From: an uncultured Parcubacteria group bacterium
GTDB taxonomy: Bacteria > Patescibacteriota > Patescibacteriia > UBA9934 > CAMTUG01
Length of the DNA: 64,000 nt
NCBI GenBank assembly: GCA_947084965.1
Contig: CAMTUG010000002.1
Span: forward strand, 79,434 to 143,433
Direction: 5' to 3'
Shown here in pieces: positions 43,551-64,000 of this stretch. Every line of letters starts with the position of its first letter. The stretch's first letter is position 1. Below the pieces are notes generated by a model that worked only from the letters and a program-made list of their open reading frames with translations, was not told where the DNA came from and did no database searches. The translations under genes were made by a program, and so were the position numbers.

Positions 43551-44010
43551 TATGAAAGATAAGACATTCATGATCCTAGGATTCGGAACAGTAGTCCTGG
43601 TGATCGGCGGATTGGCTGTGCTCGCCGCGTCGCAGAGGGTGGACACGTCGACGCTCTCAACACGCGAAGTTGCTTTGAGCTGTACAACCGACATGGCCAC
43701 GGCATTCCATATTCATCCGCGTCTCGCCATCACCGTTGATGGTGTTGATGAGTCGTTGCCTATGAATATCGGCATCAGGAGCGGTTGTATGAATCCTCTG
43801 CACACACACGAGGAACAAGGGGTGATTCACGTTGAATCACCGGTACAGCGCGACTTTACCCTCGGTGATTTTTTTGCCGTGTGGGGTGAGCCGCTGGCGC
43901 GCGAAGGGTATGCACTGACCGTGTTAGCTGACGGGACGATCGCGCCTGATCCGGAATCCGTTGTCTTCAAGGATGATCAGCAGATCGAACTATTGTATTC
44001 ATCAAAATAG
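43540..44010 (+). CDS. Membrane-anchored hypothetical protein with His/Cys motifs (possible metal chaperone)
   Basis: N-terminal TM; HIHPRL...SGCMNPLHTHEEQGVIHVE. Confidence 0.45.
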   Translation: MSFSMKDKTFMILGFGTVVLVIGGLAVLAASQRVDTSTLSTREVALSCTTDMATAFHIHPRLAITVDGVDESLPMNIGIRSGCMNPLHTHEEQGVIHVESPVQRDFTLGDFFAVWGEPLAREGYALTVLADGTIAPDPESVVFKDDQQIELLYSSK

Positions 44011-44016
44011 GACGTT

Positions 44017-46191: not shown

Positions 46192-46210
46192 CCTGCTAAC
46201 CTAGTGTCAC

Positions 46211-46825
46211 ATGCTGTTTCGCAAACAAGATCCGACGATAGAAACGTTCTGGCATCGAACGTTCGGCCCAACGCTTGGCGCCGTGGCGATGTTTTTGCTG
46301 GAAGTCATGCAGATCGTGATCATCTCGGCCGCGATCATCGTCCCGATCCGTTACTTCCTGATCCAACCGTTCTACGTCAAAGGAGCGTCGATGGAACCGG
46401 AATTCTACGATCATGAATACTTGATCATTGACGAAATCTCCTACCGGTTCAGCGATCCGGCACGCGGGGACATCATCGTCTTCCGTTATCCGCGCGACCC
46501 ATCGCAGTATTTCATCAAGCGAGTGATCGGGTTACCAGGGGAAACGGTCGAGGTGACCAACGGAGTTGTCTTTGTCTACAACGATCAACATCCGAACGGC
46601 GTAGAATTGGACGAGCCGTATTTGGATCCTGAGTTCACTGCTGGCCATAAGCGTGTCACGCTCGGTGAGGGGGAATACTTCGTCCTTGGCGATCATCGCG
46701 ACGCGAGTTTGGACTCGCGATCGTTCGGGGCTGTGCCAAGTGATTTGATCGTTGGAAAGGTGTGGTTGCGTGGATTGCCGATCAATAAAATTACGCTCTT
46801 CGAAGCGCCTGAATATAATCTATGA
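46211..46825 (+). CDS. lepB: Signal peptidase I
   Basis: GASMEPEF (box B Ser), KRVIGLPGE (box D Lys), YFVLGDHRDASLDSR (box E). Confidence 0.85.
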   Translation: MLFRKQDPTIETFWHRTFGPTLGAVAMFLLEVMQIVIISAAIIVPIRYFLIQPFYVKGASMEPEFYDHEYLIIDEISYRFSDPARGDIIVFRYPRDPSQYFIKRVIGLPGETVEVTNGVVFVYNDQHPNGVELDEPYLDPEFTAGHKRVTLGEGEYFVLGDHRDASLDSRSFGAVPSDLIVGKVWLRGLPINKITLFEAPEYNL

Positions 46826-48192: not shown

Positions 48193-48260
48193 GAGTTTAT
48201 AGGGAAAGAACGGCCTAAATGGCCGTTCTTTTGTTTTGTGGCATAAAGAGCCCAACATAA

Positions 48261-48289
48261 TTGACAAAGTTACATTTTTATGCTATTTT
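48261..48289 (+). promoter_or_regulatory. Sigma70-like promoter TTGACA-N17-TATTTT (shared type with 49019-49047)
   Basis: ttgacaaagttacatttttatgctatttt; RBS aaggaggaagg before ATG 48321. Confidence 0.45.
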
Positions 48290-48320
48290 TCTTGACCACC
48301 AAGGCAAGGAGGAAGGAAAG

Positions 48321-48818
48321 ATGCGTCGTTATTTTATCGGCATCGGCGGTCTCATGGCCGCTGGATTTGCAGGGATCGCCGTGGCGATGGTTTCTGTCCA
48401 CAGACAGTGGCAGGCAGACGTCGCGGCGGCTGAGGCGGCCCAAGCTGAGTGGGTCGCTGAGCGGGCGGAGATCGCCGAGCGCGAAGCGGTCGCGCGCAAG
48501 GCCGAGGAGCAGAAGGAGCTCATCGGCGAGGCGATGGCCAACCTGACGGGGGGCTGGAACCCCTGGATCGTCGACTCGATCGACCAGGTCCAGAACCCCG
48601 AGTTCGTCGCGCTCTTCCTGGTCGTCCGCGCCCAGCGGGACGAGCAGAGCAAGGCGCTCGACGAGCTGCTCGAGAAGGAGCCGTGCGCCAGCCGGTTCGA
48701 GAAGCCGGGCTACAAGGAGCGCTGCGACAAGCTCTTCGACGCCCTGTCCCTCGAGACCTTCGCCCCGATCAAGCCCAACCTCGACCGCATCCAGGAGATC
48801 GCCAACACGTACAACTAG
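48321..48818 (+). CDS. GC-rich membrane-anchored coiled-coil hypothetical protein
   Basis: MRRYFIGIGGLMAAGFAGIAVAMV TM then Ala/Glu-rich helix; visibly GC-rich; ORF-track start 48261 is the -35 box. Confidence 0.55.
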   Translation: MRRYFIGIGGLMAAGFAGIAVAMVSVHRQWQADVAAAEAAQAEWVAERAEIAEREAVARKAEEQKELIGEAMANLTGGWNPWIVDSIDQVQNPEFVALFLVVRAQRDEQSKALDELLEKEPCASRFEKPGYKERCDKLFDALSLETFAPIKPNLDRIQEIANTYN

Positions 48819-48821
48819 TAC

Positions 48822-48882
48822 GACCACCCCCAGCGGCCACCCTCGTCGCACTCTCGGGGGTGGTCGCTGCATTTCATGCAGC
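48822..48882 (+). terminator. GC-rich tandem hairpins (GACCACCCCC...GGGGGTGGTC then GCTGCATTTCATGCAGC), repeat family
   Basis: cgaccacccccagcggccaccctcgtcgcactctcgggggtggtcgctgcatttcatgcagc. Confidence 0.5.
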
Positions 48883-48944
48883 CACAGGGGCTTCCGCCCC
48901 TCTGGTCGTCGCTCCGCTCCTGTCACCCTCAGCAGGTAAGGGGA

Positions 48945-48970
48945 GATATCTCCCCTTACCATCCCCTCCG
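48945..48970. repeat. Perfect 26-bp palindrome
   Basis: ggtaaggggagatatctccccttacc. Confidence 0.5.
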
Positions 48971-49018
48971 CCCACGCTTCGCGTGGTCGCTGCATTTTAG
49001 CTACTTTAGCCACGAACG

Positions 49019-49047
49019 TTGACAAAGTCGACTTTTTGTGTTATTTT
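49019..49047 (+). promoter_or_regulatory. Sigma70-like promoter TTGACA-N17-TATTTT, near-identical to 48261-48289
   Basis: ttgacaaagtcgactttttgtgttatttt; preceded by a partial copy gtggtcgctgcatttta of the 3' repeat. Confidence 0.45.
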
Positions 49048-49164
49048 CGGCCCTCTGGCAATCCCGCCAGATGTGTCGACCGGATTGGGAACGGGGTTTT
49101 CCGTTGCCCTTTTCGCTCGGCCCTTACACCGTTTGGATGCAATAGGCCAAACGCTGGAGGTCTC

Positions 49165-50394
49165 GTGTTTCTGCCCACTTGGATCCCCTGGTGGATCGGC
49201 TTTCTGCAGCCGGCTTCGAAGCTGCAGCGCATGATGGAAGCGTGTTCCATCGTCATCATGGCCGTGTTCACGGCCTGGTGCGTCATCAACAACGTGGAGC
49301 CCACGGTCACCGAGCAGGACCAGGCCCGTCGCGACGCGGACGTCATCGCCGTCCAGTACGAGGCCCGCTGCAGCATTTACACCCTCGCCGAGATGGGCTC
49401 TTGGCCGTCCAAGCCGTGGACGAAGGCCAAGAACATGTGGGGCAGCAACCCCGGGTGTGGCGCCCTCGGCCAGAACTTCCTCCACTTCTTCACCAAGGGC
49501 TACCCCGACGGTGGGGGACGTTCGCCGGCCGTCTTCTGGTGGAACAACGATCGCCCGGCGGTCGCGCTCTACCAGGAGTGGTGGAAGGAGCGTGAGCGGC
49601 ACTACGAGCGGGAATGGGACAAGAAGGAAAAGGCCGAGCTCGCCAAGGCGGACGCCGCGTTCGAAGCGGCGCTCGTGAAGGCCGACGAGAGTGAGCGGTT
49701 TCAGCTCGTGCTCATCGAGACCGCCAAGCGCACCGTCGGCTGGTGGGTCGGCGGGCTCGTCGTGATCGCCATGATCGTGGGGTGCATCTACGGGTGGCTT
49801 CGCATGATCAACCACCGCTTCATCACGCACTGCGGTGTCTGGGCTGGCGGCGACTGCCTGGCCGAGGTGGTGATCCCGCGCTACCCGTTCGGGCGGCCGA
49901 AGATCACCGGTCGCTTCGACAAGGCCTGGAGGGCGGTCGTCAACTTCCGCGGCCAGACGGTGCTCGCCGACCGCCTGGGCAACCGGGTCGTCATCGGAGA
50001 GAACGGCACCTCCACGACGATCAACATGATCCTGCACCCGAGCCTCCCCGCCTACCTGAAGGCGGTCGTCAATCAGTCCAGCACCCAGGCGGTGACCATC
50101 CGTCAGCAGGGGGAGCAGATCGCCCAGCTCGAGGCGGCGGCGCAGAAGCAGAAGCAGTGGATCGACTGGTACCGCGATGAGATCCGGGCGCGCAACCGCC
50201 TGCTCGTCCTCGCCATCGAAGGGATGCGGAAGTCGAAGGACTTCCAGCGTCTCGGCGTGGTCCAGACGATGCGCGAGCGCCTGCTCGAGCGGATGCGCGA
50301 AGAGCTCAAGGACGACAAGGAGCTCTGGGCCGCGATCGGGGAGCGCGAGGAGGAAGAGGGGCTGTCCGTCAAGCCCCCGACCGAAGACAACTAG
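49165..50394 (+). CDS. GC-rich hypothetical membrane-anchored protein (GTG start after GGAGG)
   Basis: ctggaggtctcGTG; N-terminal hydrophobic segments, central TM, C-terminal coiled coil; visibly GC-rich; ORF-track start 49036 lies in the 5' UTR. Confidence 0.5.
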   Translation: MFLPTWIPWWIGFLQPASKLQRMMEACSIVIMAVFTAWCVINNVEPTVTEQDQARRDADVIAVQYEARCSIYTLAEMGSWPSKPWTKAKNMWGSNPGCGALGQNFLHFFTKGYPDGGGRSPAVFWWNNDRPAVALYQEWWKERERHYEREWDKKEKAELAKADAAFEAALVKADESERFQLVLIETAKRTVGWWVGGLVVIAMIVGCIYGWLRMINHRFITHCGVWAGGDCLAEVVIPRYPFGRPKITGRFDKAWRAVVNFRGQTVLADRLGNRVVIGENGTSTTINMILHPSLPAYLKAVVNQSSTQAVTIRQQGEQIAQLEAAAQKQKQWIDWYRDEIRARNRLLVLAIEGMRKSKDFQRLGVVQTMRERLLERMREELKDDKELWAAIGEREEEEGLSVKPPTEDN

Positions 50395-50430
50395 GCGACC
50401 GTACGGGTCGCCCCTAGACCGACCATCCCC

Positions 50431-50480
50431 AAGCAGCGATCATCCTCGTCGCTACTCCTCGGGGGTGGTCGTTTGCATTT
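50431..50480 (+). repeat. Conserved 3' element (reverse-complement match to 10241-10290)
   Basis: aagcagcgatcatcctcgtcgctactcctcgggggtggtcgtttgcattt. Confidence 0.5.
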
Positions 50481-50647
50481 TTAGGATCGGCCGCGAAATT
50501 CGTGATCTTTCGGCTTGCGGGCCCCTGCCACCTCTTCGGCGTACGTTTTTGGTACGCCTCAGAGGATGGCATCCCGCGCGCCGAAATCTCATCGAATTTG
50601 GCGACCGATCGGCTAGGAAGTGAAGGTGCTTGAAAATTAAACTGTCG

Positions 50648-50718
50648 CAAAGTGGAAGTACACAGGGTTCATTTTGTACTAACTTTAGTAAAAACTGATG
50701 TCTGTGTACTTCCACTTT
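50648..50718. repeat. 18-bp perfect inverted repeat with ~32-nt AT-rich loop upstream of rpsU
   Basis: caaagtggaagtacacag ... ctgtgtacttccactttg. Confidence 0.4.
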
Positions 50719-51652: not shown

Positions 51653-53494
51653 ATGAAGTTTGTCGCATCACTTTTTGTTGCGCTGACGTTAATTGCCACA
51701 CCGATATTTGTCGCGCTCGCCCAGCAGGAAGGGCTCGATACGGTTGGTACAGCGTCAGGACTTGGGAACCAGGATCTGCTGGTGACCATTGGTCGTGTAG
51801 TTCAAGTATTCCTTGGACTTCTTGGTGTTATCTTCCTGTTGCTGACGATCTACGCCGGCTACCTTTGGATGACGTCGCAAGGGGATGAAGAGAAAGTTCA
51901 GAAGGCGATCAACATCATTAAATCGGCGACGATCGGGTTGATCATCTGTCTGGCCGCGTTCGCGATCGCTACGTGGATCGTGAATGCGCTCATCGCAGCG
52001 ACAGGGCTCGGTTCCGACACTACGGACGACAGCGCAACGCCAACCCCGTTCTCGGACGCTCTCGGAAGCGGTGGTATTGAAGATCATTATCCGCCACGCA
52101 ACGGAACGGATATCGCCCGTAATACAAAAATTATCGTCACGTTTAAAGAAGAGGTTTATATCCCTTCACTGATTGTTGATTACGATACAGGGGCGGATGC
52201 GTCAGATGTGAGCGATGACACCGCTCCAGCCGTCGCTTATTTGAACACAGATAATGTGACGATCTCCTGTGTTGATCCGACCACAGCAGAGGAGACGGAT
52301 CTTACTTCAACGGAAGTGACCGTGGCCTTTACGGAAGATTTACAAACATTCGTGTTCGATCCGCCCGTTCTCGGTTCGTCTGTTTATGAAACGACATGCA
52401 CCGTTGCTCTTGGTCCGGGTATCTTAGAAGCGGATGGAGCGAATGTCTTCACCGGTTCAAGCGCGGAAGGTTACCAATGGTCATTCACGGTTTCGACCGA
52501 GATCGATACCACTCCGCCGACGATTCGTAGCATCTACCCAACAGAAGGGGCGACAGACGCACGCAATGTCTTAGTGCAGATCGTCTTTTCCGAGGCTGTG
52601 GATCCAACAACGACATCTGGAACGTATGACCTGACAGAGGGCGGATTCACCAACATCCAGGTTCAGTCTGACGAAGACGAAACAGGCACCTACAGCCCAG
52701 TTGCCGGAACATTCGTCATTTCGAGCGGATACACGGTCGTTGAATTTACCTCCGCCGACGCTTGTGGGACGAATTCTTGTGGAGAGACGATCTATTGTTT
52801 GCCTGGGCCGAGTGCTACAGAAGCAACAGAAGAAATTCAACTTGAAATTCAGGCCGCTGACCTCGGAGATTCTCCTCCAGAGGCGGCCACACCGTATACG
52901 GGCGTCGTTGATGTGGCGGGGAATTCCCTTGATGGAAACGACGACGGCACAGCCGGGGATGATGCACGTTCAGATTTTTCTGTCACGGATGAAATCGTTT
53001 TGGCCGGACCTGAGCTGACCGATATCTCACCAAATCCTGTTGAGGAAGATGTCGACGTGGATGCAGATCTGACCTTTATTTGGGATACGATCATGCGTTC
53101 AAGCACACTGACCAACAGCAACATCAGTTTGTACGCTTACCCCGATCACGAATTGTATTACGTCGCTCGCAACAGTTCGTACGACAGTAGTGGGGTGGAA
53201 GTGACAGCAACGACCCAAACCCCGGATCACACCGTGACGGAGATGAGTCATGGGACGTTTGTCGAATCGATTGAAGATGATCCATCAACAGCGGCGGATG
53301 AATCGACCTCACAACTGTATGCTCCATTACTCCCGGACGCAGTGCAGAGCATCTATCAAAACTGTTTCTACCCAGCGGTGGGGCCAGGGGCGAGCGAGAC
53401 GACTTCGTGTGATGGTACGGCCAACAATCCGTACTGCTGCGATGGAGTAGAAGCTGACGCTCCGTTTAACGCCACGACATTCTCATGTCCTTAA
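51653..53494 (+). CDS. Secreted/membrane-anchored protein: signal peptide + two-helix pilin-like (TrbC/VirB2-like) module + Ig-like domains + Cys-rich C-terminus
   Basis: MKFVASLFVALTLIATPIFVALAQ ... LLGVIFLLLTIYAGYLWMTSQGDEEKVQKAINIIKSATIGLIICLAAFAIATWIV; same module as the next gene. Confidence 0.7.
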   Translation: MKFVASLFVALTLIATPIFVALAQQEGLDTVGTASGLGNQDLLVTIGRVVQVFLGLLGVIFLLLTIYAGYLWMTSQGDEEKVQKAINIIKSATIGLIICLAAFAIATWIVNALIAATGLGSDTTDDSATPTPFSDALGSGGIEDHYPPRNGTDIARNTKIIVTFKEEVYIPSLIVDYDTGADASDVSDDTAPAVAYLNTDNVTISCVDPTTAEETDLTSTEVTVAFTEDLQTFVFDPPVLGSSVYETTCTVALGPGILEADGANVFTGSSAEGYQWSFTVSTEIDTTPPTIRSIYPTEGATDARNVLVQIVFSEAVDPTTTSGTYDLTEGGFTNIQVQSDEDETGTYSPVAGTFVISSGYTVVEFTSADACGTNSCGETIYCLPGPSATEATEEIQLEIQAADLGDSPPEAATPYTGVVDVAGNSLDGNDDGTAGDDARSDFSVTDEIVLAGPELTDISPNPVEEDVDVDADLTFIWDTIMRSSTLTNSNISLYAYPDHELYYVARNSSYDSSGVEVTATTQTPDHTVTEMSHGTFVESIEDDPSTAADESTSQLYAPLLPDAVQSIYQNCFYPAVGPGASETTSCDGTANNPYCCDGVEADAPFNATTFSCP

Positions 53495-56400
53495 AACGTT
53501 TCATCCTGAGTTTCGTGATCGCCCTCGCTGCCGTGGGATTCTTTGCTCTGCCAGCCCTTGCCCAGATCGATACAGGGATTGAAGAGGGGAGTGCATTCCA
53601 ACAAGCGCTCGGGCTTGGCACGGCCGATCCTAAGATTATTGTGGCGAACGTGATCCGTGCCGCCCTCGGACTGCTCGGTGTTGTTGCGGTCTGTCTGTTC
53701 ATCTACGCCGGCTTTTTGTGGATGACGAGCGGCGGAAGCGAAGAAAAAGTTGATCGGGCGCGCAAGATGCTGATCAACGCCACGGTCGGGTTAACGATTA
53801 TTTTGGCTTCATTTGCCATTACGCAGTTTGTCCTTTCGCGTCTGCTTTCAGCCACTGGAGTCGGCGGCTCTGATATTACCGGTGGAGGAGGCACGTCTGG
53901 TGGGGCACCGGCTTCCACCGACGCGGTGTTTGTGATTGAAAGCGCTTCACCGCAAGGCGAGCAGACGATCAAAAACTTAACGGTCCGTCTGACCTTTAAC
54001 AAAGACGTTGACGGGGACACGGTGAGTGCGATCACGATTACACCAGATGGATCTTCGACGCCGGTTGAGGGGACGTATGCGGTCAACGGTGATCGTGTGA
54101 CCTTCACCCCGAGTCTCGCCTGTGAAGAAGCGCCGAGCGAAAACTGTTTTGCGGAAAATACGTTGTACACGATCGAGCTGGGTTCAGGGCTGAAGAGTGA
54201 GTCCGGCCTGACGATCTCTTGTGGTGGACTGTATGACGCCTGTGAGTACGAATTTACTTCTGGGGAGCTTGTTGATACCACAGATCCCGAAGTTGAGATC
54301 ACCTACCCGGAAGACGGCGATTCCGTTTCTGTTGATGCGTACGTTCCGCTTCAAGCGCTCGTCACGGATGATGCCGGAGTTTCTTTGGTTGAATTTTACG
54401 TGGACGGTGTGTTGGTTGATACCGATCAACCGGACGGCGACACCCCGACCGAATTTATCGCTGAAATCGAATGGGACACCGCGGCGATCGAAGAGGGCAG
54501 TGAGCATGAGATTTATGCGATCGCCTACGATGTGAACGCGCATGATGCGGATTCGGATGCGATTGAAGTGACCGTACGTGCCGCGCACTGTTTTAATGGA
54601 GAGACAGATGAAGATGAAACGGGGGAAGATTGCGGCGGCGAAGATTGTGGTTCCTGTGGCGGTGATGCGTGTGTCGAAGATAGTGATTGTCAAAGCGGAG
54701 TCTGTGAAGACGGTTCTTGCGTCGATGCCCCAGAAATTACAGGCGTTTCTCCGGCGGACGGCGCTCCGGGCACCTACGTTACGATTTCTGGAAATAATTT
54801 TGGGAGCAGCACTGGCACGGTGTTGTTTGGAGACGTTGAGGCCGAACTTGCTGACTGTAACGACCCGTGGGATACGGATCAGGTCATTGTTGTCGTTCCG
54901 GAAGGGGTGAGCGAGGGGGAACTTTATACTATTACGCTCACAACCGCAGGTGGTCATAGCGATAGTACGGATGATGACAACGGTACGTTGATTGATGATT
55001 TTGAAGTGACTTCGGTTGTCCGTCCGGGGATCTGTCAGTTGGATCCGGATTTTGGTGAGGTCACAGACCCGACAGATGTATTGGGGGTAAATTTTGGCGA
55101 TGCCCAGGACAGCGGGGCATTTTATTTCGGCACCGTAGAAGCTGGAGCGTACACGGATTGGGCCGACGAACTTCTTTCCGTGATCGTGCCAACGCTCGCA
55201 GCCGATGATTACGATGCTACGGTTTGGATTGATGGAGTGGAATCAAACACCGTCAACTACGAAGTGCAGGAAGCAGACACCGGTGCGGCACCTGTCATCA
55301 CCTCGATCGATCCAGAATCCGGACCGATCGATGAATACGTGACCATTGTCGGTGAAAACTTCGGTTCTTCTACTGGTTTGGTTTATTTCACAAATACGGA
55401 TACAGAAAGTGCTGATTTTGGGGTAGTGACGGCCGCCTCCACGGATTTCCCCGCCGTCTGTGTAGATGATATCTGGGGTGGCGAAGAAATCATCGTCAAA
55501 GTGCCAGAAGGTGTTGAGAGTACAACGTACTCGGTCAATGTCTATCGGTACGACAGCGTCGCTTCGGAAGGGATAGACTTCACGGTGACGGACGGTACGG
55601 CCGGTCCGGGGATCTGTGCGATCGATCCGGATTCTGGACCGTCCGGGTATGAAGGGGTGACGATCTCGGGTGAAGGATTTGGGGACGATGAAGGCACAGT
55701 CACGTTTGCTGACGGTCAGTCAGCGAGCGTCACTACCTGGGAAGACGGAGAAATTGTGGTCGATGTGCCGGAGGCGGCAGTGACGGGCTATGTAACGGTC
55801 ACGGATACCTCAGATGATGAATCCAACGGTACGCTTTTTGGCATCGGCGACTGTAACGAAGTTGATCTTTGTGATGCGAACACCCAGCAGTGTTGTTCTA
55901 CAGGGGTGTGTGTTGCTTCAACGGGCAGCTGTCCGGAAGAAACGGTGATTGATGCGTCGTATGCCTGGCGGTTTTCAACTGGGCCGATTCCGACGGTGCC
56001 GGGGATCGAGGTGGAATGCTCGGACGACATGATCAGTCCGACCCCTTGGGACGGACGCTCTGGTGGTGATGCGGTTTGTGTCAATGCCGCCCTTTCGGCA
56101 ACCTTCGACACGACGATGGATCAGGATAGCTTTACCTCAACGACGATCTTGTTGAATAAATGCACCGGCCCATCCGACGACCCTTGTTCATCTGTGGAAT
56201 CGGTTACTCTCGACACGATCGATACAACAAGCGTCAGCTTTACGGTCGCGCCTGCCTCGGTTCTCGACGTCTCCTCGACCTACCTGATCACATTAACGAG
56301 TGGGATCACTTCGTATAATGGAACGGCGATCGAGGAAACAGCCTGGACATTTGGGACCTCCTCGAGCGCGGAAATTTGCGATATCGAAGGGGTGAACATC

Positions 56401-59400
56401 ACCCCGAGCAGCCAAACGATCGAAGAGGAAGATGGGACGGCGAATTTCAACGCCCAAGCGGTCGCGGCGGACGAGTGTGTCATCCTTGATTCCGGCGCCT
56501 ACGCTTGGAATTGGGAGACAGACGAGACGTATGCCACGCTGACAACCGCAGCCGATGCGGATTGCACCGGCGAGCCGTCTTCTTGTCAGAGTGCGCTGGC
56601 GGTCCAAGAGGGTACGTCTTACATGTTGGTCGAAGAAAACACCCAGGGGGTGGACGATGATGCCGACCTGCTGATTAATTTTACTAATCCGTACATCGTG
56701 AGTTACGAACCTTCTTGCGGTGAAGGGGGAACGGCCTGTATCAACGCCGGGATTTACGTCACCTTTAATACGGAGATGGACGAAAGTTCTATCACGAGCC
56801 CTGGGCGGGTCGTGGTGTATCCGTGTACGGATGAAATTTGCGCTGCCTATACGGATGCCGACGGGATCGAACTTTCCATTGATCTCGATGACGATGATCC
56901 AACACAGCTCTCCATCATCCCAACCAGCTACTTCACGTCGACAACGTATTACGAAGTTATCCTGTCCGGGGACATTGCTTCTGAGAGTGGGGTGTTGATG
57001 TCGGAAACGTACGACGGTGATTTCTCCTGGACGTTTTTGACTAAAGCAGACGACACACTTTGCGCTGTTGATCGTGTTGCCTTGGATCCAGGTTCGGCGA
57101 CCGTTGATTACGTCGGGGCGACAGCGGTTTTTGAATCGCGCGCTTATGGTTTGCCAGACGCCTGTTCTTCGGAAGGTCAACAGCTTGTCGGTACGAGCTA
57201 TGACTGGGCGTGGGTGAGCGACAACACAGCTGTTGCCACACTCTACAGCGATGGTGCAGTCGAAGTGGCTACGGACGAAATTCCTGACGGGTGTACAACG
57301 TCTTGCTTACCAGAAGGGACGCAAAGCTACACCGCCATTTGCGGCGAAGACGCAGACGGTGATGGGAGCTTGCTCGATTCGGGTGAGGATTGTGATGACG
57401 GAAACGCTGAAGACGGTGATGGATGTTCTTCGCAGTGCTTGAACGAGGGGACGACGGCCTGCACTTCTGCGACCGACCCGTCCTGCTGTGGAAATGGTAC
57501 GGTCGATGCGGCTGAGGAGTGCGATGATGGCGGGAGTAGGAGTGGTGACGGTTGTTCCGCAAGCTGTCTCAATGAAGGATCACGGTCCGTTGGTTTGAGC
57601 TGCACGGACAACGTTTTGACACACTACGACACCGTCGGGACAACGACCTGGGCCGGAGGGGAAGAGTGCAATGACGAAGATGATGGCTGTTCAAGTGTAT
57701 GCTTGAACGAGGGGTCGCCGTCGAACTTGGATTTGGTCGGTGTGTGTGGTAACGGTGTCGTGGAAAGTCCGGCAGAAGAGTGCGATGGCGGGGCTCGCTG
57801 TTCCGACACCTGTCTGTTTGAAGGGAATACCACGGCCTGCAGTGCAACCGTTACCACGAATTGTTGTGGCAATAGCACGACTGAATCTTCTGCTTTTGAA
57901 TCTTGTGACGACGGAAATACCACCAGTGGCGACGGCTGCTCAAATCTTTGTCTGCTGGAGGGAAGTTCCGCACTCTATACCACCCCAAGTTTCTGCGCGG
58001 ATGCCACAGTGGGGTTGGGCGAAGCTAGTGCTTGCGAAGTATCAACCAGCGATTTAGACGGGAACGTTGAACCGATTCAGGTGGCGATCATCGCCACGAC
58101 CGCTCCGGCAGAAGTGGTTGACGGAGTGGCGACGTCCACGATTGAGGCAACGACCGAAGGGGAGACCGGCGAGGCAGCGTTTAATCTTTCCTGTTCCTGT
58201 ACGGTGGACAGTGACTGTTCCGACTCGACGACGCTCGGCTGCGGAACGGGTGGATGTTGTTACGTCCGACCAACAGTAACCGACTACACCCCTTCAACAA
58301 CGGATGCCTGTCGCAACACGTTGATCTCTTTTACCTTTGATGCCGAAATGAACATCAACACCTTTGCTGAAAATGTTTCGGTCGAACTTGAGTTGGATGC
58401 TGATGAAACCTGTCCGTATGATGGGTCGACGGCCCGCGCGAACGGGAGCTGGTTCTCGCGTCTGTGGAACACGGTCACCGATTTCTTCACCGGATTTGTT
58501 CTGCCGGCAGATGCGCAATCATCCGTTTGCGAACTTCCTTTCACCTTCAGTGTCTCTGACGATGCGGGCGGACAACGCGTATCCTTGATCTATACGGAAT
58601 TACTGGAAGCGAGTCATGATTACACCGTGACGATCACCGGTGATCCAGATCACGACGGTTCTGGTGTTCGCTCGGCCGACGGGGTCGGTATGCAAGCGGA
58701 TTACACCTTCACCGCTGAAATCGGCGAGGACGTCTGCTCATTTGATGCGGTGAGAGTTGAGGATGAAGACGAAGATTCTCCAGGGCTCTTCACAGAGACG
58801 AATGAAGAGCACAGCTATCATGCTACAGCGATCACCACGACCGGAGGTGTGGAAGAAGAACTCTCTTCAATCCCAGGGGTTTACGAATGGGATTGGACGC
58901 AAACGTGGTGGTCAACCGACACGGAGATTTTGACCGTCCCTTCGACGAGCGAAACCGATGCCGAGGGCGATGATAACGTCGTCACCGCCGTCGGAGAAAA
59001 CGGGGAAGCGGTTATTTATGCCGATGCGCTGATCACCGTCGATACGCTCTTTGGCCTGGCGGGTGAATCTGTTGCTGGATCGGTTGATGCCGTTGCTAAC
59101 TTGTGTGAAAATCCTTGGCCGGCATTGCCGACCGCCGATGAACTCGCGGCGGGCGGTACCTGGGAACCGTTTACCGATGAAGACGGCGCGGATGCGGATC
59201 CAGATGATGACGGCACAGATGAAATTGCTGAACGCGATGGCTACATGCACTTCTCGACCTATTATTGCCGTGATGATGGCGATGAAGGGGGGAGTGATGA
59301 CTTTGATTCGGCAGACGCCGTCGGTGTGACGGCTCCACCGGGTGATGTGCTCAAAGAATATCTTTTCCGTTTCAGCAACGGCGACGGTATTGGTATTCGC

Positions 59401-62400
59401 ATCTCTCCAAATGAAGATCTCCTGGCGATCGGTGACTGGTATGCAGAGCAAGGATTCACCGGTTCGCCTTCCGCCACAACGGTCGATGGCTACGAAGCGC
59501 TCCAAGACGGCCGCACGGTTTACGTTTTGGCCGCCAATCAGAGCGACGATGGCGACATCTATTCGAATATTTACGTCCTCTCCTATTCCGAAGGGGCTGA
59601 TGAATCGACGGTGGAGATCTTCAACCAGATGCTTGAAAACTGGTCGTTCAATACCAACGTCAGTAATGATCAGCTTTGCTATGAAACGGTAACCACAGCA
59701 ACGGAAGTGACCGCCAGGATTCCGATCTGTAATTCAGCGACCTCTGCCGGATATCAGCAGGATTGTGTCATGGACTGTGATGACGCATGGCAGTGTTACT
59801 ACGGTGATACGGACGAGGACGGCTATTGTGACATGGTTGGGACGGCCAACTTGCGTGGTGAAGGTGCTGTCTGTGGCGATGGAGATTACGACTGTAGCAT
59901 TGATTGTTCAGGATCAAGCATCGGTTTCCGTACCGGAACCGTTACTCATGATGTGGATAGCCTTGAGATTTCAGCGGAGACCTGTTCCTCGGATTTCGAT
60001 TGTTCCAGCGGGCCTTGTAGTGCAGAAAAGGACAAGCTGACGCGTGACCTCAAGCGTCTGACCGACCTGCGCTATATCGAAGGAGCTCTTGAGAATTATG
60101 GCGAATCAAACGGGCGCTGCAGCGCATCGACCTCTATCTCTTGTACTTCAAGCGCGGATTGTCCGAGCGCCAGCGAAACATGCGAACCGGTCTATCCAGA
60201 GATTAACTCCGGTTCGTTCCTCCGCTCCATCACCGATAGCGCTTGGTCGTCGTGGACCGAGGTGTTGCAGAGTGACTTGGAAGTAACGATCCCAACCGAT
60301 CCGCTCAATCAATTCGATCTTTGCGGAGAGACGGGTGGCGATTACGCGGACTACAGCGCAGACACCTGCTGGAACGCGACCAACTCGTTATTCGCCTGTC
60401 CGGCCGGCTCCTACACCTATCTCTATCGTAATATTGGTCAAACGGCGTATCAGATCCTCGTTGACCTAGAATATGATTACGTCAGTGCTAGCCCGACGGC
60501 TTCTTGGGCCTTCGCCATTGACCAAGACACGACGGACGATCTCGATATTTTGGTGGGGAACGCCTTCGATAATCTGACTGACGGGTATCAAGAGGATCCA
60601 ACGTGTAACGACGACATCTACGGCGCATCCGAAGTTTGTGGGGACGGCGTGCGTGGGTCTGGGGAGGCGTGTGAAGCGGGTGATACCCAGAGCGTTGCTT
60701 GCACCGCACTGGTCTGTGTTAGTAGAGACGCGGATTATGACGGACAAGCCTGTCTGATCGATTGTACGGACACGACGATCTGTTCCGGCGGGGATGCGGA
60801 TGCGGACGGTGACTGTGATTCCGGCCTGGCCGCCGGCCTTGCCTGTAATTCCGGCGCAGTCGATTGTACGGACACGACGATCTGTACAACAACCGCTTCG
60901 GAGAGCGGGACAACGACCGAATCTTGTATCGACGACCCCAGCGATGCCCTGGCTTGTGATGATTATGAAACGAATCCTCGTGCGGCCTGCGTGCCGGTTC
61001 GCTGCGGAAACGGTGTCGTTGATGCGGGTGAAACGTGCGACGACGGTTCACGCAACGGGACGTACGGCTATTGCGGTACTAATTGCGCTTGGGACAGCTC
61101 AGCGTTCTATTGTGGTGACGGTACCCTTGCTGGCGGAGAATCTTGTGATGAAGGTTCAGACAACGGTGTCTATACACTGAATCCGGCTAATTCTTGCAAC
61201 GCCACCTGTTCAGGGACCGGTCCATCCTGCGGAGATGGAAAGGTAAATGGTGCCGAGATTTGCGATGGTGACAACGAGCAATACGAAGGCGCACTCTGTT
61301 CAGATGGGGAGACGGCGTGTGATGATGATAGCGACTGCTCCGGAACAGATACCTGTCATTTGACGTATGATTCGAGTGTGTCCATTTTGGGCCAGCATCT
61401 CGCCTGTCCGACAGGGAATGTCTGCGTCGGTGGCTCGCTTGATGGAGTCCTTTGTAATGGAACGAGCTGGGCGGATGTTGGGATCACGGGCTTGGATGAA
61501 CTTGGCGTCGATCTAGTTCTACTCGGTTTGTGTCAGGCGGGTGGGGGAACATGCGACACAACAGCGGCTGAATATCAAACCTATCGCACCCGTTCTTGCG
61601 ATGAAGATGCGACAAGTGCCACCGCCTGCCAATGGAACTCTTGGAATTATTGTAACAGTGCCGAGCAAATGTGCGGCGATGGGGAAATACAGGGTGAGGA
61701 AGAATGTGATGACGGTAACAGCAGCAATAATGACGCCTGTACTAACGCCTGTACTTCGAACGTCTGCGGTGATGGCTATTTGTACTCCGGTTACGAAACG
61801 TGCGACCGCGGGGACGAGAACGGCACGATCTGCGAAGCAGATTACGGTTCAACCTGTCGCTACTGCTCAAATGCCTGTGTCTATCTGACCGCTTCGGGTG
61901 ACTATTGCGGTGATGGAGTGCTTGATACATCTTCTGAAGTCTGTGATGGAACACTTACCTCGCACTATTACTATTTTGATTCAGCAACTCGGACGGTTAA
62001 CGGGATCTGTTACACGCTCGGTGACACACTCTCGGACGATGGTGTTGATTACACCTGTCGTGATGTTGGTGTTTGTGACGGTGGTCCTGATGGCGGGGAA
62101 TATTGTACCTACTCCGCTGGGGAGTCGGTTAGTGGAAATGATCAAACGACCTGTGATACCAACTCGACACAGTTCTATACTTGTATGAAGCCGACGTGCA
62201 ATGATGATTGTGCAAGCGCCTGTCCGTTCAATTATGAAGAAGGTACGGTCTCGATTACCAGCGAGTCCGCTGGGGCTGTGGCTGGTACTTCGCTTAGTCT
62301 GTACAGTTTTGAGAATGATGATGGTAATGCGCCGGACAACGCCACACTGACGCTTCCAGCCTGTACTGTTTGGTCGTCGTTAACTGCCGATATTTCTGAA

Positions 62401-63402
62401 TCAGAACGTAATCTCCCGGACACAGATATTATCTTTGTCCTTGATAAGTCGCAGTCGATGTCTAGTACGTTGTCTGGTTCAGATACCCGATTAGATATTT
62501 TACGGTCTGCCGTTAGTGATGCTGTTGACGAACTCTTTGACGCCTATACCGGGGTAAGTGCCGAGTTGAGAGTCGGCGTCGCCTATATCGGCGGCCAGCA
62601 TGGTACAGATGGTGATTCGAGTGGGACCTACAGCCAGAGTGAACTCAACGATTTCTTACTGCTTGATTTGACTGATGAAAAAGCCGATGTCTTGCAAACC
62701 TTAGCAGATGACTTCAGAGGTGTGGACTCCGTGCAAGGGACACCAATATACGAATCGGTAGCGGACGCGATTGATGCACTTAGTGATTCAACTGCTGAGA
62801 GTCGCATCATCATTGTCTTTACCGACGGAGATATTTACAACACTTCAACAGAGTATGGAAAGATCCAGTCGGTTTATGGCCTGAGTGATTCTGACTCAAG
62901 CGGCAGCGTCAATGATGAATATATGGCCGAAGTCAGTCAGTTGACTGATGACGCCAAGGATAGTGGGATAGAAATTTATTCTGCTGTTCTGACCTCTACT
63001 ACTTGTGACATTCGTCAGATGCAGCGCTGGTCGTCAATGGTGTGTACAACAGATACAAGCGCTGATAACTGTTCTGGTGCTCGCGCTGAGGGGAATGATC
63101 TTTCTTGCACGGAACCGGATTCGGGGCTGACCTATGCTTACTCGGCAACCACAGCAGACGAACTCGCGGCGATGTATGAGCAGATTATCGACTCGATTCT
63201 TGGCGTAACAGTTATCATTGTCGACGAGGACGGCAATGAGGGCATGGATCTGGTTGACGTCGGTGATTCGATTACCTTGCCATTGCCCTCGGCGTTCATC
63301 TGTGATGAAACGGCAGAGAAGGATGTGAGTATCAAAGTCAGTTTCCGTGGGAGTGGCCCGGTCAAGTTTGAGGCGTTTGAATTGAACATGTGTGCCCCAT
63401 AA
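53485..63402 (+). CDS. Giant (3305 aa) multidomain surface protein: pilin-like anchor, Ig-like, 3x IPT/TIG, two Cys-rich repeat blocks, C-terminal vWA
   Basis: LLGVVAVCLFIYAGFLWMTSGGSEEKVDRARKMLINATVGLTIILASFAITQFVL; IPT-like PEITGVSPADGAPGTYVTISGNNFGSS x3; CxDDGNxxxGDGCSxxC repeats; vWA DIIFVLDKSQSMS...IIIVFTDGD. Confidence 0.75.
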   Translation: MSLKRFILSFVIALAAVGFFALPALAQIDTGIEEGSAFQQALGLGTADPKIIVANVIRAALGLLGVVAVCLFIYAGFLWMTSGGSEEKVDRARKMLINATVGLTIILASFAITQFVLSRLLSATGVGGSDITGGGGTSGGAPASTDAVFVIESASPQGEQTIKNLTVRLTFNKDVDGDTVSAITITPDGSSTPVEGTYAVNGDRVTFTPSLACEEAPSENCFAENTLYTIELGSGLKSESGLTISCGGLYDACEYEFTSGELVDTTDPEVEITYPEDGDSVSVDAYVPLQALVTDDAGVSLVEFYVDGVLVDTDQPDGDTPTEFIAEIEWDTAAIEEGSEHEIYAIAYDVNAHDADSDAIEVTVRAAHCFNGETDEDETGEDCGGEDCGSCGGDACVEDSDCQSGVCEDGSCVDAPEITGVSPADGAPGTYVTISGNNFGSSTGTVLFGDVEAELADCNDPWDTDQVIVVVPEGVSEGELYTITLTTAGGHSDSTDDDNGTLIDDFEVTSVVRPGICQLDPDFGEVTDPTDVLGVNFGDAQDSGAFYFGTVEAGAYTDWADELLSVIVPTLAADDYDATVWIDGVESNTVNYEVQEADTGAAPVITSIDPESGPIDEYVTIVGENFGSSTGLVYFTNTDTESADFGVVTAASTDFPAVCVDDIWGGEEIIVKVPEGVESTTYSVNVYRYDSVASEGIDFTVTDGTAGPGICAIDPDSGPSGYEGVTISGEGFGDDEGTVTFADGQSASVTTWEDGEIVVDVPEAAVTGYVTVTDTSDDESNGTLFGIGDCNEVDLCDANTQQCCSTGVCVASTGSCPEETVIDASYAWRFSTGPIPTVPGIEVECSDDMISPTPWDGRSGGDAVCVNAALSATFDTTMDQDSFTSTTILLNKCTGPSDDPCSSVESVTLDTIDTTSVSFTVAPASVLDVSSTYLITLTSGITSYNGTAIEETAWTFGTSSSAEICDIEGVNITPSSQTIEEEDGTANFNAQAVAADECVILDSGAYAWNWETDETYATLTTAADADCTGEPSSCQSALAVQEGTSYMLVEENTQGVDDDADLLINFTNPYIVSYEPSCGEGGTACINAGIYVTFNTEMDESSITSPGRVVVYPCTDEICAAYTDADGIELSIDLDDDDPTQLSIIPTSYFTSTTYYEVILSGDIASESGVLMSETYDGDFSWTFLTKADDTLCAVDRVALDPGSATVDYVGATAVFESRAYGLPDACSSEGQQLVGTSYDWAWVSDNTAVATLYSDGAVEVATDEIPDGCTTSCLPEGTQSYTAICGEDADGDGSLLDSGEDCDDGNAEDGDGCSSQCLNEGTTACTSATDPSCCGNGTVDAAEECDDGGSRSGDGCSASCLNEGSRSVGLSCTDNVLTHYDTVGTTTWAGGEECNDEDDGCSSVCLNEGSPSNLDLVGVCGNGVVESPAEECDGGARCSDTCLFEGNTTACSATVTTNCCGNSTTESSAFESCDDGNTTSGDGCSNLCLLEGSSALYTTPSFCADATVGLGEASACEVSTSDLDGNVEPIQVAIIATTAPAEVVDGVATSTIEATTEGETGEAAFNLSCSCTVDSDCSDSTTLGCGTGGCCYVRPTVTDYTPSTTDACRNTLISFTFDAEMNINTFAENVSVELELDADETCPYDGSTARANGSWFSRLWNTVTDFFTGFVLPADAQSSVCELPFTFSVSDDAGGQRVSLIYTELLEASHDYTVTITGDPDHDGSGVRSADGVGMQADYTFTAEIGEDVCSFDAVRVEDEDEDSPGLFTETNEEHSYHATAITTTGGVEEELSSIPGVYEWDWTQTWWSTDTEILTVPSTSETDAEGDDNVVTAVGENGEAVIYADALITVDTLFGLAGESVAGSVDAVANLCENPWPALPTADELAAGGTWEPFTDEDGADADPDDDGTDEIAERDGYMHFSTYYCRDDGDEGGSDDFDSADAVGVTAPPGDVLKEYLFRFSNGDGIGIRISPNEDLLAIGDWYAEQGFTGSPSATTVDGYEALQDGRTVYVLAANQSDDGDIYSNIYVLSYSEGADESTVEIFNQMLENWSFNTNVSNDQLCYETVTTATEVTARIPICNSATSAGYQQDCVMDCDDAWQCYYGDTDEDGYCDMVGTANLRGEGAVCGDGDYDCSIDCSGSSIGFRTGTVTHDVDSLEISAETCSSDFDCSSGPCSAEKDKLTRDLKRLTDLRYIEGALENYGESNGRCSASTSISCTSSADCPSASETCEPVYPEINSGSFLRSITDSAWSSWTEVLQSDLEVTIPTDPLNQFDLCGETGGDYADYSADTCWNATNSLFACPAGSYTYLYRNIGQTAYQILVDLEYDYVSASPTASWAFAIDQDTTDDLDILVGNAFDNLTDGYQEDPTCNDDIYGASEVCGDGVRGSGEACEAGDTQSVACTALVCVSRDADYDGQACLIDCTDTTICSGGDADADGDCDSGLAAGLACNSGAVDCTDTTICTTTASESGTTTESCIDDPSDALACDDYETNPRAACVPVRCGNGVVDAGETCDDGSRNGTYGYCGTNCAWDSSAFYCGDGTLAGGESCDEGSDNGVYTLNPANSCNATCSGTGPSCGDGKVNGAEICDGDNEQYEGALCSDGETACDDDSDCSGTDTCHLTYDSSVSILGQHLACPTGNVCVGGSLDGVLCNGTSWADVGITGLDELGVDLVLLGLCQAGGGTCDTTAAEYQTYRTRSCDEDATSATACQWNSWNYCNSAEQMCGDGEIQGEEECDDGNSSNNDACTNACTSNVCGDGYLYSGYETCDRGDENGTICEADYGSTCRYCSNACVYLTASGDYCGDGVLDTSSEVCDGTLTSHYYYFDSATRTVNGICYTLGDTLSDDGVDYTCRDVGVCDGGPDGGEYCTYSAGESVSGNDQTTCDTNSTQFYTCMKPTCNDDCASACPFNYEEGTVSITSESAGAVAGTSLSLYSFENDDGNAPDNATLTLPACTVWSSLTADISESERNLPDTDIIFVLDKSQSMSSTLSGSDTRLDILRSAVSDAVDELFDAYTGVSAELRVGVAYIGGQHGTDGDSSGTYSQSELNDFLLLDLTDEKADVLQTLADDFRGVDSVQGTPIYESVADAIDALSDSTAESRIIIVFTDGDIYNTSTEYGKIQSVYGLSDSDSSGSVNDEYMAEVSQLTDDAKDSGIEIYSAVLTSTTCDIRQMQRWSSMVCTTDTSADNCSGARAEGNDLSCTEPDSGLTYAYSATTADELAAMYEQIIDSILGVTVIIVDEDGNEGMDLVDVGDSITLPLPSAFICDETAEKDVSIKVSFRGSGPVKFEAFELNMCAP

Positions 63403-63403: not shown

Positions 63404-64000
63404 ATGGAGGAACAATACCAGCCACAATCGTATGTCTATGAAGGACAATCGGGCGCACCGGAGCCAGTTGTAAAAAATCGCCGCTGGGTTGTTATTGGGG
63501 TGGTGGTCATTCTCGTCATTATTCTGTTCTCGTTCGTCACTATCTTTTTTGTGAATCGGTCACGTGCGAACCGAGCGGCGGAACAAGCAGCAGCGAATAA
63601 ACGCGCGGAGGTAATCGTTGTTATTGAAGAAAAGTGCAATGATGCTGAATTACCTGAAGAATGTCTGTTGGATCTGCGCGGAAGTGCAGCACAGAAGGCG
63701 GCGGATGTTGCTTATTGTGACGGGCTTGCATCTGGAACAGCCTACGATTCTTGTGCCATGTTGGCGGCGATCGCCGCGGCGGATGCTTCATATTGCGATA
63801 AGATATCGGATGCAACCAAAAAAGCCGCTTGCAATGATGCGGCCCTATCCTCTGTTGCATCCGCGGATCGTCAGTATGACGATTGTCGGCTTTATTCGAC
63901 GACCCAGCGCCAAGATCAATGTAGAGATGAATTTGTTATTCGGGCTGTTGTGCAGGGGGTCTGTGATCCTGCGTTCATGGATGATGTATCTTGCGATGCG
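63404..64000 (+). CDS. Membrane-anchored Cys-repeat hypothetical protein (3'-partial, runs off window)
   Basis: MEEQYQ...WVVIGVVVILVIILFSFVTIFFV TM, then repeated A..YCD motifs; TAATATG junction with the giant gene. Confidence 0.5.
   Translation, partial: MEEQYQPQSYVYEGQSGAPEPVVKNRRWVVIGVVVILVIILFSFVTIFFVNRSRANRAAEQAAANKRAEVIVVIEEKCNDAELPEECLLDLRGSAAQKAADVAYCDGLASGTAYDSCAMLAAIAAADASYCDKISDATKKAACNDAALSSVASADRQYDDCRLYSTTQRQDQCRDEFVIRAVVQGVCDPAFMDDVSCDA

Follow-up and report, generated by a model that had tools for sequence, protein, structure and literature searches.

A predicted giant surface protein with a VirB2-like pilin head in a conserved locus of Patescibacteria

The locus and its genes

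At one end of a 64,000-nucleotide stretch of DNA from an uncultured Parcubacteria group bacterium (contig CAMTUG010000002.1; the whole stretch is called the window below) lies an open reading frame (ORF) of 9.9 kb. The protein it would encode, referred to here as the giant, is predicted to begin with a pilin-like membrane hairpin, to continue as a long series of adhesin-type domains and to end near a von Willebrand A (vWA) domain. An earlier note on this DNA had picked out the ORF as single and uninterrupted, which it is, with coordinates correct to within a few tens of bases and motif positions that agree with those found here. It overlooked several things: a paralogous gene with a pilin head, gene A, just before the giant; the multi-gene locus and its conservation; the fission and fusion of the giant gene among relatives; and two internal domains of the protein, one PsbP/Mog1-like and one weakly pseudopilin-like. 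Three genes of the locus fall within the window:

51653 to 53494, forward strand: gene A, 613 aa (amino acids); signal peptide, VirB2-like hairpin at residues 44-109, then Big_5
53485 to 63402, forward strand: the giant ORF; ATG start, 3305 aa, uninterrupted, no in-frame start further upstream
63404 to 64000, forward strand, running off the end of the window: first downstream single-pass membrane protein gene, a member of neighbour cluster 1

The genes are tightly packed: gene A overlaps the start of the giant by 10 nt, and the next gene begins 2 nt past its stop. The mature giant would have a mass of ~342 kDa and an isoelectric point of ~4.05; its ectodomain holds 160 Cys, 18% D+E and 2.5% K+R. 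Neither tandem DNA repeats nor long near-identical direct repeats were found inside 53485-63402, so that repeat collapse during assembly is unlikely; the sole direct repeat of at least 40 nt in the 51.6-64 kb region is the pilin-head region shared with the upstream gene, at 70% nucleotide identity. The G+C content of the ORF (0.53-0.55) is the same as that of the rest of the window.

The window is chromosomal: it carries a ribosomal protein operon, SecY, Adk, Map, tRNA synthetases, ParAB, TopA, DprA, Der, RelA and five tRNAs. The loci nearest to this one come from Uhrbacteria-type metagenome-assembled genomes (MAGs), and the named relatives are Candidatus Uhrbacteria, Falkowbacteria and Magasanikbacteria. 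The source is an ABY1/Uhrbacteria-like member of the Patescibacteria, in keeping with the small-genome bacterium supposed earlier. Public records label orthologues of the giant ‘FG-GAP-like repeat-containing protein’ or ‘Big 5 protein’, never pilin. The organism names in such records also call for care: dozens of MAG contigs with a clearly Patescibacteria locus (L001, L004, L005, L007 and others) are publicly titled ‘uncultured Gammaproteobacteria bacterium’, which looks like a placeholder or an error.

The N-terminal pilin module

Homology searches were run with pieces of the giant, not with the whole protein. The N-terminal region has two features:

53485 to 53562, forward strand: Sec-type signal peptide, residues 1-26 (AlphaFold2 helix 3-26; probable cleavage between ALA and Q)
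53629 to 53856, forward strand: VirB2-like pilin hairpin, residues 49-124 (PF18895, phmmer, AlphaFold2); a helix, a GFLWMTSGG loop and a second helix

Judged by its sequence, the N-terminal module belongs to PF18895 (T4SS_pilin), the family of VirB2-like pilins of Patescibacteria. The family model matches residues 54-116, scoring 30.3 bits on the N-terminal 150 aa, 27.4 on 300 aa and 24.5 on the full length; the gathering score of 26.6 bits is reached with the N-terminal 150 or 300 aa and not with the whole 3305 aa. When residues 1-140 were compared with 5.8 billion proteins by phmmer, 71 matches were returned, with E down to 6.5e-27. All but one (70) carry the PF18895 annotation, and the majority are pilins of 100-150 aa that stand alone, from Patescibacteria/Uhrbacteria, at 40-60% identity. 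The alignment of the giant with these free pilins begins at the signal peptide and extends through the second helix; the pilins end ~10 residues later, and the giant continues via a Gly-rich linker. G65, G76, W79, M80, T81, G84 and G102 are invariant in the 72 sequences of alignment A1, the giant included.

Structure prediction, proposed in the earlier note as a check on this region, gives the helical hairpin: AlphaFold2 places helices at 3-26, 49-80 and 86-124, with a pLDDT (predicted local distance difference test) of 85-90 for the hairpin. Compared with the PDB by Foldseek, the hairpin model found no significant match (best E = 0.89); this was to be expected of a bare pair of helices with the signal peptide still on it, and bears neither way on the VirB2 fold. 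The proposal that the region resembles the core of TrbC/VirB2-type pilins stands as membership of PF18895, and does not extend to a match with PF04956 (TrbC/VirB2), which found nothing at E <= 10 in either N-terminal piece (150 or 300 aa); a precomputed PF04956 annotation is also attached to five of the 71 closest head relatives. Likewise the signal peptide proposed earlier is retained, and its cleavage site moves by one residue: signal peptidase I would likely cut after A26 (A-L-A before Q) rather than after ALAQ, and the free-standing pilins in A1 have A-x-A-type sites at the equivalent position.

Gene A has a head of the same kind. It scores 40.1 bits for T4SS_pilin and 44.4 bits for Big_5, and is paralogous to the giant, with 29% identity over the first ~300 aa (E = 1e-26). 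The two heads are the sole pilin modules in the window. Both are matched by NCBIfam NF045849 (Mbov_0395 family pilin-like conjugal transfer protein); only gene A, at 41.4 bits, reaches the cut-off of 40, the giant scoring 25.1 bits.

At 3305 aa the giant is far from the usual ~100-150 aa free-standing size of PF18895 proteins, and it has company. A head profile built from A1 found 72,793 family members among 1.84 billion representative proteins. Among the best 150 representatives, ~30 are of 1,100-4,400 aa with a single head at residues ~7-145, and other long members are of 450-900 aa, two of them exactly 613 aa. Heads of related giants in other genomes score 100-138 bits against this profile, as compared with ~145-150 for single-module free pilins within the best 150. 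About 20 giants align with that of the window over more than 2,000 residues; one of them, P0213 (3,271 aa), does so over residues 24-3304. Long PF18895 proteins are, as far as sequence tells, a recurrent sub-architecture, and the view that a pilin anchor bearing an adhesin/vWA array is not a standard architecture needs amending to that extent.

The family shows two further arrangements. Among the best 150 representatives, P0114 (1,775 aa, 17 matched stretches), P0079 (820 aa, 8 stretches), P0075 and ~60 more are single ORFs with 2-17 tandem PF18895 hairpins (‘poly-pilins’); these look like covalently concatenated pilin subunits. In GCA_020049755.1 (L080:7838-13357) a close free-standing relative of the head, P0003 (46% identity), lies in an array of ~10 small PF18895 genes that adjoins S6-SSB-S18, with no VirB4 gene within 10 kb.

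The body of the giant and its vWA domain

Beyond the hairpin, the giant divides into the following segments:

53932 to 54495, forward strand: Big_5 (residues 150-258) then Big_7 (residues 268-337), Ig-like, after the Gly-rich linker (Pfam)
54730 to 55833, forward strand: IPT/TIG array, residues 416-783 (Pfam, three stretches, 84 bits)
56062 to 57042, forward strand: two further Big_5, residues ~860-958 and ~1067-1186 (36.7 and 33.6 bits)
57340 to 57984, forward strand: Cys-rich acidic repeat block 1 (TIGR02232, 91.5 bits in three stretches; DUF4215, 30.8 bits)
59359 to 59661, forward strand: PsbP/Mog1/Eag(DUF1795)/LpqN-like alpha/beta domain, residues ~1959-2060
60019 to 60471, forward strand: long helix then beta-sheet domain, residues ~2179-2329, weakly similar to type IV pilin/type II secretion system (T2SS) pseudopilin heads
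61003 to 61974, forward strand: Cys-rich repeat block 2, CG[ND]G...CD units (TIGR02232, 35.2 bits; DUF4215, 25.7 bits)
62428 to 63159, forward strand: vWA domain (VWA_2; profile A5 against the PDB)
63172 to 63399, forward strand: C-terminal module of ~75 residues with a conserved Cys pair, ending ...C-x-P (alignment A5)

The body is predicted to be an array of adhesin-type, extracellular domains. With the whole protein as query, Pfam lists Big_5 (4 stretches, 108 bits), TIG (3 stretches, 84 bits) and Big_7 (39-47 bits), all above their gathering scores, together with T4SS_pilin, VWA_2 and DUF4215; the giant was also scanned against Pfam in 400-residue pieces. The Ig-like and three IPT/TIG modules read by eye in the earlier note are the ones found here, and a fourth TIG-like module is visible, the four starting at residues 416, 514, 603 and 708.

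Both of the Cys-rich blocks that had been pointed out match TIGR02232 (‘cysteine-rich acidic repeat’), which scores 73.9 bits on the whole giant (cut-off 20.8); the second is more degenerate than had been implied. The DUF4215-like models suggested for these repeats give the same order: against a gathering score of 27, block 1 lies above and block 2 below. The C-x-DDG-x-GDGCS-x2-C motif occurs at residues 1303, 1346 and 1474, and CG(N/D)G...CD motifs occur at residues 1335, 1421, 2507, 2543, 2582, 2730, 2761 and 2808.

Between the two blocks lie the two domains not previously seen. A model of residues 1940-2345, built with 17 homologues, has a pLDDT of ~92 for residues ~1959-2060 and moderate values for ~2179-2329. 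The first domain carries the motifs IGIRxxPN and VDGYEAxxDGRTVYV. The likeness of the second to the type IV pilin/T2SS pseudopilin (GspG/PilA-type) head is weak, and the hydrophobic helix with which type IV pilins and pseudopilins begin is missing from it.

At the C-terminal end, VWA_2 scores 29.6 bits on the last 380 aa (gathering score 27) and 23.1 bits when the entire protein is scanned. Phmmer with the C-terminus as a single sequence gave no match in the PDB; the A5 profile, built from the C-termini of nine orthologues, does match vWA domains of known structure (E = 1.5e-14), among them the pilus adhesins 3tw0, Mfa5 and Streptococcus sanguinis PilB. All five residues of the metal ion-dependent adhesion site (MIDAS) are present (D2987, S2989, S2991, T3086 and D3114), and the profile alignment sets them on the DxSxS, T and D positions of PTMP1; the intact MIDAS claimed earlier for the C-terminal vWA domain is borne out by these residues together with the two kinds of match. 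In the C-terminal module that follows, A5 positions C348, F362, C378 and P380 are invariant in the nine orthologues.

Two familiar ways of fixing a large adhesin to a cell were considered and rejected. Sortase anchoring would call for an LPXTG motif, a hydrophobic stretch and a positive tail, which were not found at the C-terminus; the sequence ends ...VKFEAFELNMCAP. For type I secretion system (T1SS)/RTX anchoring, neither RTX repeats nor a C-terminal T1SS signal gave a Pfam or NCBIfam match in whole-protein or segment scans.

Conservation of the locus, fission and fusion

The locus was sought with one genome per species, using the conserved internal segment of the giant (the PsbP/Mog1-like domain) as query and search patterns taken from alignment A3, a smaller alignment used in place of A2, which was too divergent to yield patterns. 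Among species-representative genomes 232 relatives of the segment were found, and 79 loci were kept. In ~55 of the 79, a giant ORF with a pilin head is immediately preceded by another pilin-headed ORF, of 580-1,000 aa; by ORF clustering, a gene A-family member is directly upstream of the giant in 44 loci. The conserved order is gene A (600-1,000 aa), the giant, then two to three single-pass membrane proteins with bacterial TSP3 repeats (thrombospondin type 3, Ca-binding). Neighbour cluster 1, the TSP3-family membrane proteins that follow the giant, has 117 members in 55 loci. The L001 orthologue of the gene at 63404-64000 has a bacterial TSP3 repeat at 27.5 bits. In L001 the TSP3-family genes lie at 13876-16495; the third protein of the set has a C-terminal alpha/beta domain.

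Housekeeping genes frame the locus, as identified by Pfam: HisRS, S21 and YqeY on the upstream flank, and on the downstream flank YbeY, DagK, FtsA and FtsZ in Uhrbacteria-type genomes or ClpP, SecD and SecF in Falkowbacteria-type genomes, where RelA is among the neighbours as well. It is a core-genome cluster, conserved in ~55 species-level genomes.

Eight full-length orthologues of the giant, at 36-54% identity, are collinear with it end to end; orthologues occur in Uhrbacteria-, Falkowbacteria- and Magasanikbacteria-type genomes. The most conserved segments among them are the hairpin (residues 61-120, mean identity 0.57) and, level with it, residues 1981-2040 within the PsbP/Mog1-like domain. 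Insertions private to the window lie at residues ~2060-2160, 2400-2460 and 2640-2700.

The gene comes in two forms. In 20 loci of Uhrbacteria type, that of the window included, the giant is fused, one gene of 3,068-3,724 aa. In 36 loci of Falkowbacteria type it is split: the end of a pilin-headed gene of ~1,550-2,300 aa coincides exactly with the start of a separate gene. This second gene, whose family is present in 56 loci (median ~1,000 aa; 1,069-1,595 aa in the listed examples), carries at its start a signal/anchor segment and the conserved internal module seen in the giant. Because the two halves are fused as one gene in other loci, they presumably work together wherever they are separate.

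Division of the upstream partner may be seen in L082:2111-12542 (JGI 3300056999), where a 143-aa pilin on its own, at 60% identity to the head of the giant, and a Big_5 protein of 516 aa precede a 3,643-aa giant; the split of the gene A equivalent is either a real fission or a sequencing/frameshift error.

The type IV secretion context

Pilins of the VirB2 kind belong with type IV secretion systems (T4SSs). VirB3, VirB4, VirB6 and TraG/coupling protein genes were recognised neither among the ORFs scanned across the 64-kb window nor among the neighbour families conserved within 10 kb in the 79 related loci; in the window and in those loci, the giant sits among housekeeping genes, not beside T4SS genes. 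Systems of the MPF-FATA type (a mating-pair formation class) in monoderm bacteria are usually said to be without pilins. The ABY1 class has virB4 loci elsewhere in the genome, near comF, recG and radA (PMC12102498). VirB2-like pilins and pilin arrays are known in Patescibacteria (PMC10633639, PMC12102498, PMC12857230), and in Southlakia, the single species tested, VirB2-like pilins are essential (PMC10633639). A survey of Patescibacteria T4SSs lists PF18895 matches as VirB2 with lengths not given, and detected no adhesins (PMC12102498).

The lone plasmid relative of the hairpin is on a Pontibacillus megaplasmid, 4 kb from a VirB4-like ATPase. That protein, of 151 aa, is annotated ‘Mbov_0395 family pilin-like conjugal transfer protein’ and matches the hairpin weakly, at E = 2e-3 (L083:11707-18021; Pontibacillus sp. 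plasmid NZ_CP062975.1); its cluster also holds the VirB4-like ATPase, of the CD1110 family, and a large peptidoglycan hydrolase.

Comparison with known systems

The head of the giant has its counterparts among small proteins. Patescibacteria VirB2-like pilins of PF18895 (the Southlakia epibionticum ML1 array; the arrays of Quinonero-Coronel et al. 2025) align end to end with its N-terminal 125 residues at 40-60% identity. They are free-standing, of ~100-150 aa, and many lie beside virB4; the giant has 3,180 residues more and lies among housekeeping genes. The TrbC/VirB2/TraA pilins (PF04956) of F, RP4 and Ti share with it a signal peptide and a two-helix hairpin, whereas the giant has no PF04956 match and the organism that encodes it is monoderm. 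The C-terminus of F-pilin and VirB2 is on the outer face, so that a C-terminal extension is topologically possible. Mbov_0395 pilin-like proteins (NF045849), of ~80-150 aa, belong to integrative and conjugative elements of Mollicutes and Bacillota; the giant is chromosomal and falls below the curated cut-off for that family.

As an idea, the combination of a pilin module with a MIDAS-bearing vWA module has a precedent in PilB of Streptococcus sanguinis (7b7p; PMC8179133), and PilB is matched by the vWA profile of the giant family (E = 2e-6). The pilin modules belong to different superfamilies: PilB has a class III signal peptide, a single N-terminal helix and type IV pilus machinery, and is ~10 times smaller, whereas the N-terminus of the giant is a Sec-type signal peptide with a VirB2-type hairpin and not a class III/type IV pilin helix. 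The likeness to modular type IV pilins is one of function and architecture alone. Adhesins of sortase pili of the GBS104/RrgA type (3tw0) and Mfa5 of type V pili (6tnj) also present a distal vWA/MIDAS on a fibre, as the giant may; these are anchored through sortase/LPXTG or strand exchange, whereas the giant, ending ...FELNMCAP, lacks LPXTG.

In length and in its Ig-like arrays, the giant resembles SiiE, LapA, Ebh and the giant membrane proteins of the predatory Vampirococcus lugosii, whose multi-thousand-residue arrays project from the cell. SiiE and LapA are T1SS substrates with C-terminal secretion signals. Unlike these two, the giant has no RTX/T1SS signature, and a VirB2-type anchor is unreported for such giants in the searchable literature. 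The cysteine-rich acidic repeat proteins of Myxococcus type (TIGR02232/DUF4215) are called to mind by units of the form C-x-DDGN-x3-GDGCS-x2-C, matched at 73.9-91.5 bits; in the giant these repeats make up two internal spacer blocks of a far larger protein, from another phylum.

How the giant might work

One way to put these parts together, held here with moderate confidence, is that the giant is a very long surface fibre, held in the membrane by its pilin hairpin and carrying the vWA domain as a distal binding head. Sec would export the precursor and the signal peptide would be removed. The VirB2-type hairpin would hold the mature protein in the cytoplasmic membrane with both ends outward and the GFLWMTSGG-EEK loop in the cytoplasm, a topology suggested by what is known of VirB2/TraA and by the extracellular character of all that follows. 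After a Gly-rich linker the chain would run on outside the cell for ~3,180 residues, with these parts in series: Ig-like Big_5, Big_7 and TIG modules, Cys-rich acidic repeats, the PsbP/Mog1-like domain, the weakly pseudopilin-like domain, the second Cys-rich block and the vWA domain. The disulfide-rich acidic repeats probably bind Ca2+ and stiffen the fibre; the distal MIDAS, by comparison with other vWA adhesins, would bind an acidic ligand on the surface of a partner cell via Mg2+ or Mn2+. The giant probably acts with the gene A protein and the two to three TSP3 membrane proteins, a partnership suggested by synteny across the clade and by the overlaps of starts and stops. Since all residues invariant in free-standing pilins are retained in the hairpin, we think that the hairpin contacts the pilin system too.

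What speaks for the membrane-held fibre is the integrity of the ORF, the homology of the head, the adhesin-type body, the vWA domain with its MIDAS, the conserved locus and the tight packing of its genes. Giant membrane proteins have been proposed as host-attachment fibres in Vampirococcus, a bacterium of the candidate phyla radiation (PMC8080830). The giant is regarded here as a core envelope and attachment structure, not as an accessory of a mobile element, and it is a strong but unproven candidate for the means by which Patescibacteria cells grip a partner.

Several points weigh against the fibre. Residues ~1190-1290, 1500-1950 and 2330-2500 have no assigned fold. The DxSxS part of the MIDAS is degenerate in four of nine orthologues (L011, L010, L020 and L024), so metal-dependent binding may not be the conserved function. 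Cleavage at the Gly-rich linker could release the protein instead of anchoring it. A role in a surface layer or envelope scaffold fits the core-genome position beside ftsA/ftsZ as well as adhesion does.

A second perspective, possible though rather doubtful, takes the hairpin to be a working polymerisation module, and the giant (perhaps gene A too) to be a tip or minor subunit of a VirB2-type filament built from small PF18895 pilins. A T4SS-like machine would extract the hairpin from the membrane and the adhesin array would be displayed on the filament, making the giant the VirB2 counterpart of PilB. The head does retain the GFLWMT(S/A)xG loop along with the conserved glycines, and no other part of the protein is better conserved, which a plain anchor would not require; its nearest relatives are pilins that stand alone, in some cases within arrays of ~10 genes; and the metagenome locus in which the gene A equivalent appears as a free 143-aa pilin beside a separate Big_5 protein can be read in the same sense. 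Proteins with 2-17 tandem hairpins exist, so a polypeptide can continue past the second helix. The hairpin family is tied to monoderm T4SS clusters elsewhere, through NF045849 and the Pontibacillus plasmid with its nearby VirB4-like ATPase. VirB2-like pilins are essential in Southlakia (PMC10633639), surveys of Patescibacteria T4SSs report no separate adhesin (PMC12102498), and vWA modules occur on tip or minor subunits in three other pilus types (PMC8179133). The filament is harder to reconcile with the surroundings, since no T4SS gene was recognised in the ORFs of the window or in the conserved neighbours of the 79 loci, and with size, as an appendage of 3,180 residues cannot fit on every subunit of a filament. 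Moreover, no VirB2-type pilus has been visualised in any Patescibacteria bacterium, per the literature examined, and the fold search with the hairpin model gave nothing significant.

A third account, which seems improbable, would have the giant, the gene A protein and the TSP3 proteins form an acidic surface layer or scaffold, bridged by Ca2+ and serving shape or division instead of specific adhesion. An isoelectric point of ~4.05, acidic Cys-rich repeats, partners with Ca-binding TSP3 repeats and a MIDAS motif that is not strictly conserved would all suit a scaffold, as would a core-genome locus beside ybeY, dagK, ftsA and ftsZ in Uhrbacteria-type genomes. That last association is not general, as Falkowbacteria-type loci lie beside RelA, ClpP and SecDF; the set of TIG, Big_5 and vWA domains is typical of adhesins, and the C-terminal parts vary strongly between species, as expected of a partner-recognition surface.

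That the giant is an artefact, whether an assembly chimera (named in the earlier note as what would undo its proposal) or a run of fused or mis-called genes, is effectively refuted already: the two-gene arrangement of Falkowbacteria-type genomes means that a missed stop could in principle fuse such a pair, but the fused form recurs in 20 loci, that of the window among them, collinear from residue 1 to the last, the nearest orthologue (L001, 3,308 aa) is 54% identical, the repeat scan found nothing able to mislead an assembler, and G+C content is uniform with the remainder of the window, so that a chimera is ruled out by the end-to-end collinearity of the eight orthologues.

Significance

Patescibacteria make up a large share of bacterial diversity. 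To our knowledge every cultivated member lives attached to another cell, and the molecules of contact are largely unknown. T4SSs of monoderm bacteria are normally without a pilus, which makes the VirB2-like pilins of Patescibacteria puzzling. Against this background, a whole clade (Uhrbacteria, Falkowbacteria and Magasanikbacteria types) appears to have fused one pilin module to two adhesin-like proteins, and the locus is a concrete, testable candidate for the attachment apparatus of these bacteria. The searchable literature, with most subscription journals outside its coverage, yielded no account of giant adhesin-like bodies that bear a VirB2-type head, nor of the syntenic locus of gene A and the giant. 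Pilin-headed giants are common in metagenomes and apparently unremarked, their component parts all coming from known families.

Two practical consequences follow. Lists of ‘VirB2’ matches deserve to be re-read by protein length. The natural pair of fused and split forms ties a separate family of surface proteins, of ~900-1,600 aa, functionally to the pilin-headed protein. If the giant were indeed a subunit of a filament, it would be the first ‘modular T4SS pilin’, and like the gene A protein it would be a covalent adhesin-pilin capping or priming a VirB2-family filament in a monoderm; the adhesin so far missing from the essential Patescibacteria T4SS/pilin system would then be accounted for, and with it the physical basis of the hold on the host.

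Other features of the window

A stretch of ~2.6 kb at 48200-50700, between HisRS and S21, has a G+C content of 0.61 as against a window average of ~0.53. It holds ORFs of 185, 452 and 148 aa, all without a Pfam match and overlapped by antisense ORFs; HisRS and S21 are adjacent in the syntenic locus L001, unlike in the window, and the stretch may be an insertion. A second segment of high G+C (0.61) lies at 10001-12000, where the 344-aa ORF 10278-11312, also without a Pfam match, is almost wholly covered by an antisense ORF of 322 aa.

The region 42363-46825, 7-11 kb upstream of gene A and the giant, encodes a DsbD-family thiol-disulfide membrane protein, a Cu-type P-type ATPase and signal peptidase I; the products of gene A and the giant gene would both need signal-peptide cleavage. 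The proximity of the DsbD-family and signal peptidase genes to a giant with 160 Cys may be coincidence.

Further upstream, 12517-17491 carries genes for two aminoacyl-tRNA synthetases of class II (D/K/N-type), 435 and 470 aa long, with ORFs of 384 and 364 aa without a Pfam match between them; tRNA-Asn (12404-12479) is just upstream of the pair. On the reverse strand, a mechanically listed ORF of 475 aa at 26055-27482, with a weak MFS_1 match, overlaps tRNA-Leu (27377-27462, reverse strand) at its 5' end, and its true start is therefore further downstream.

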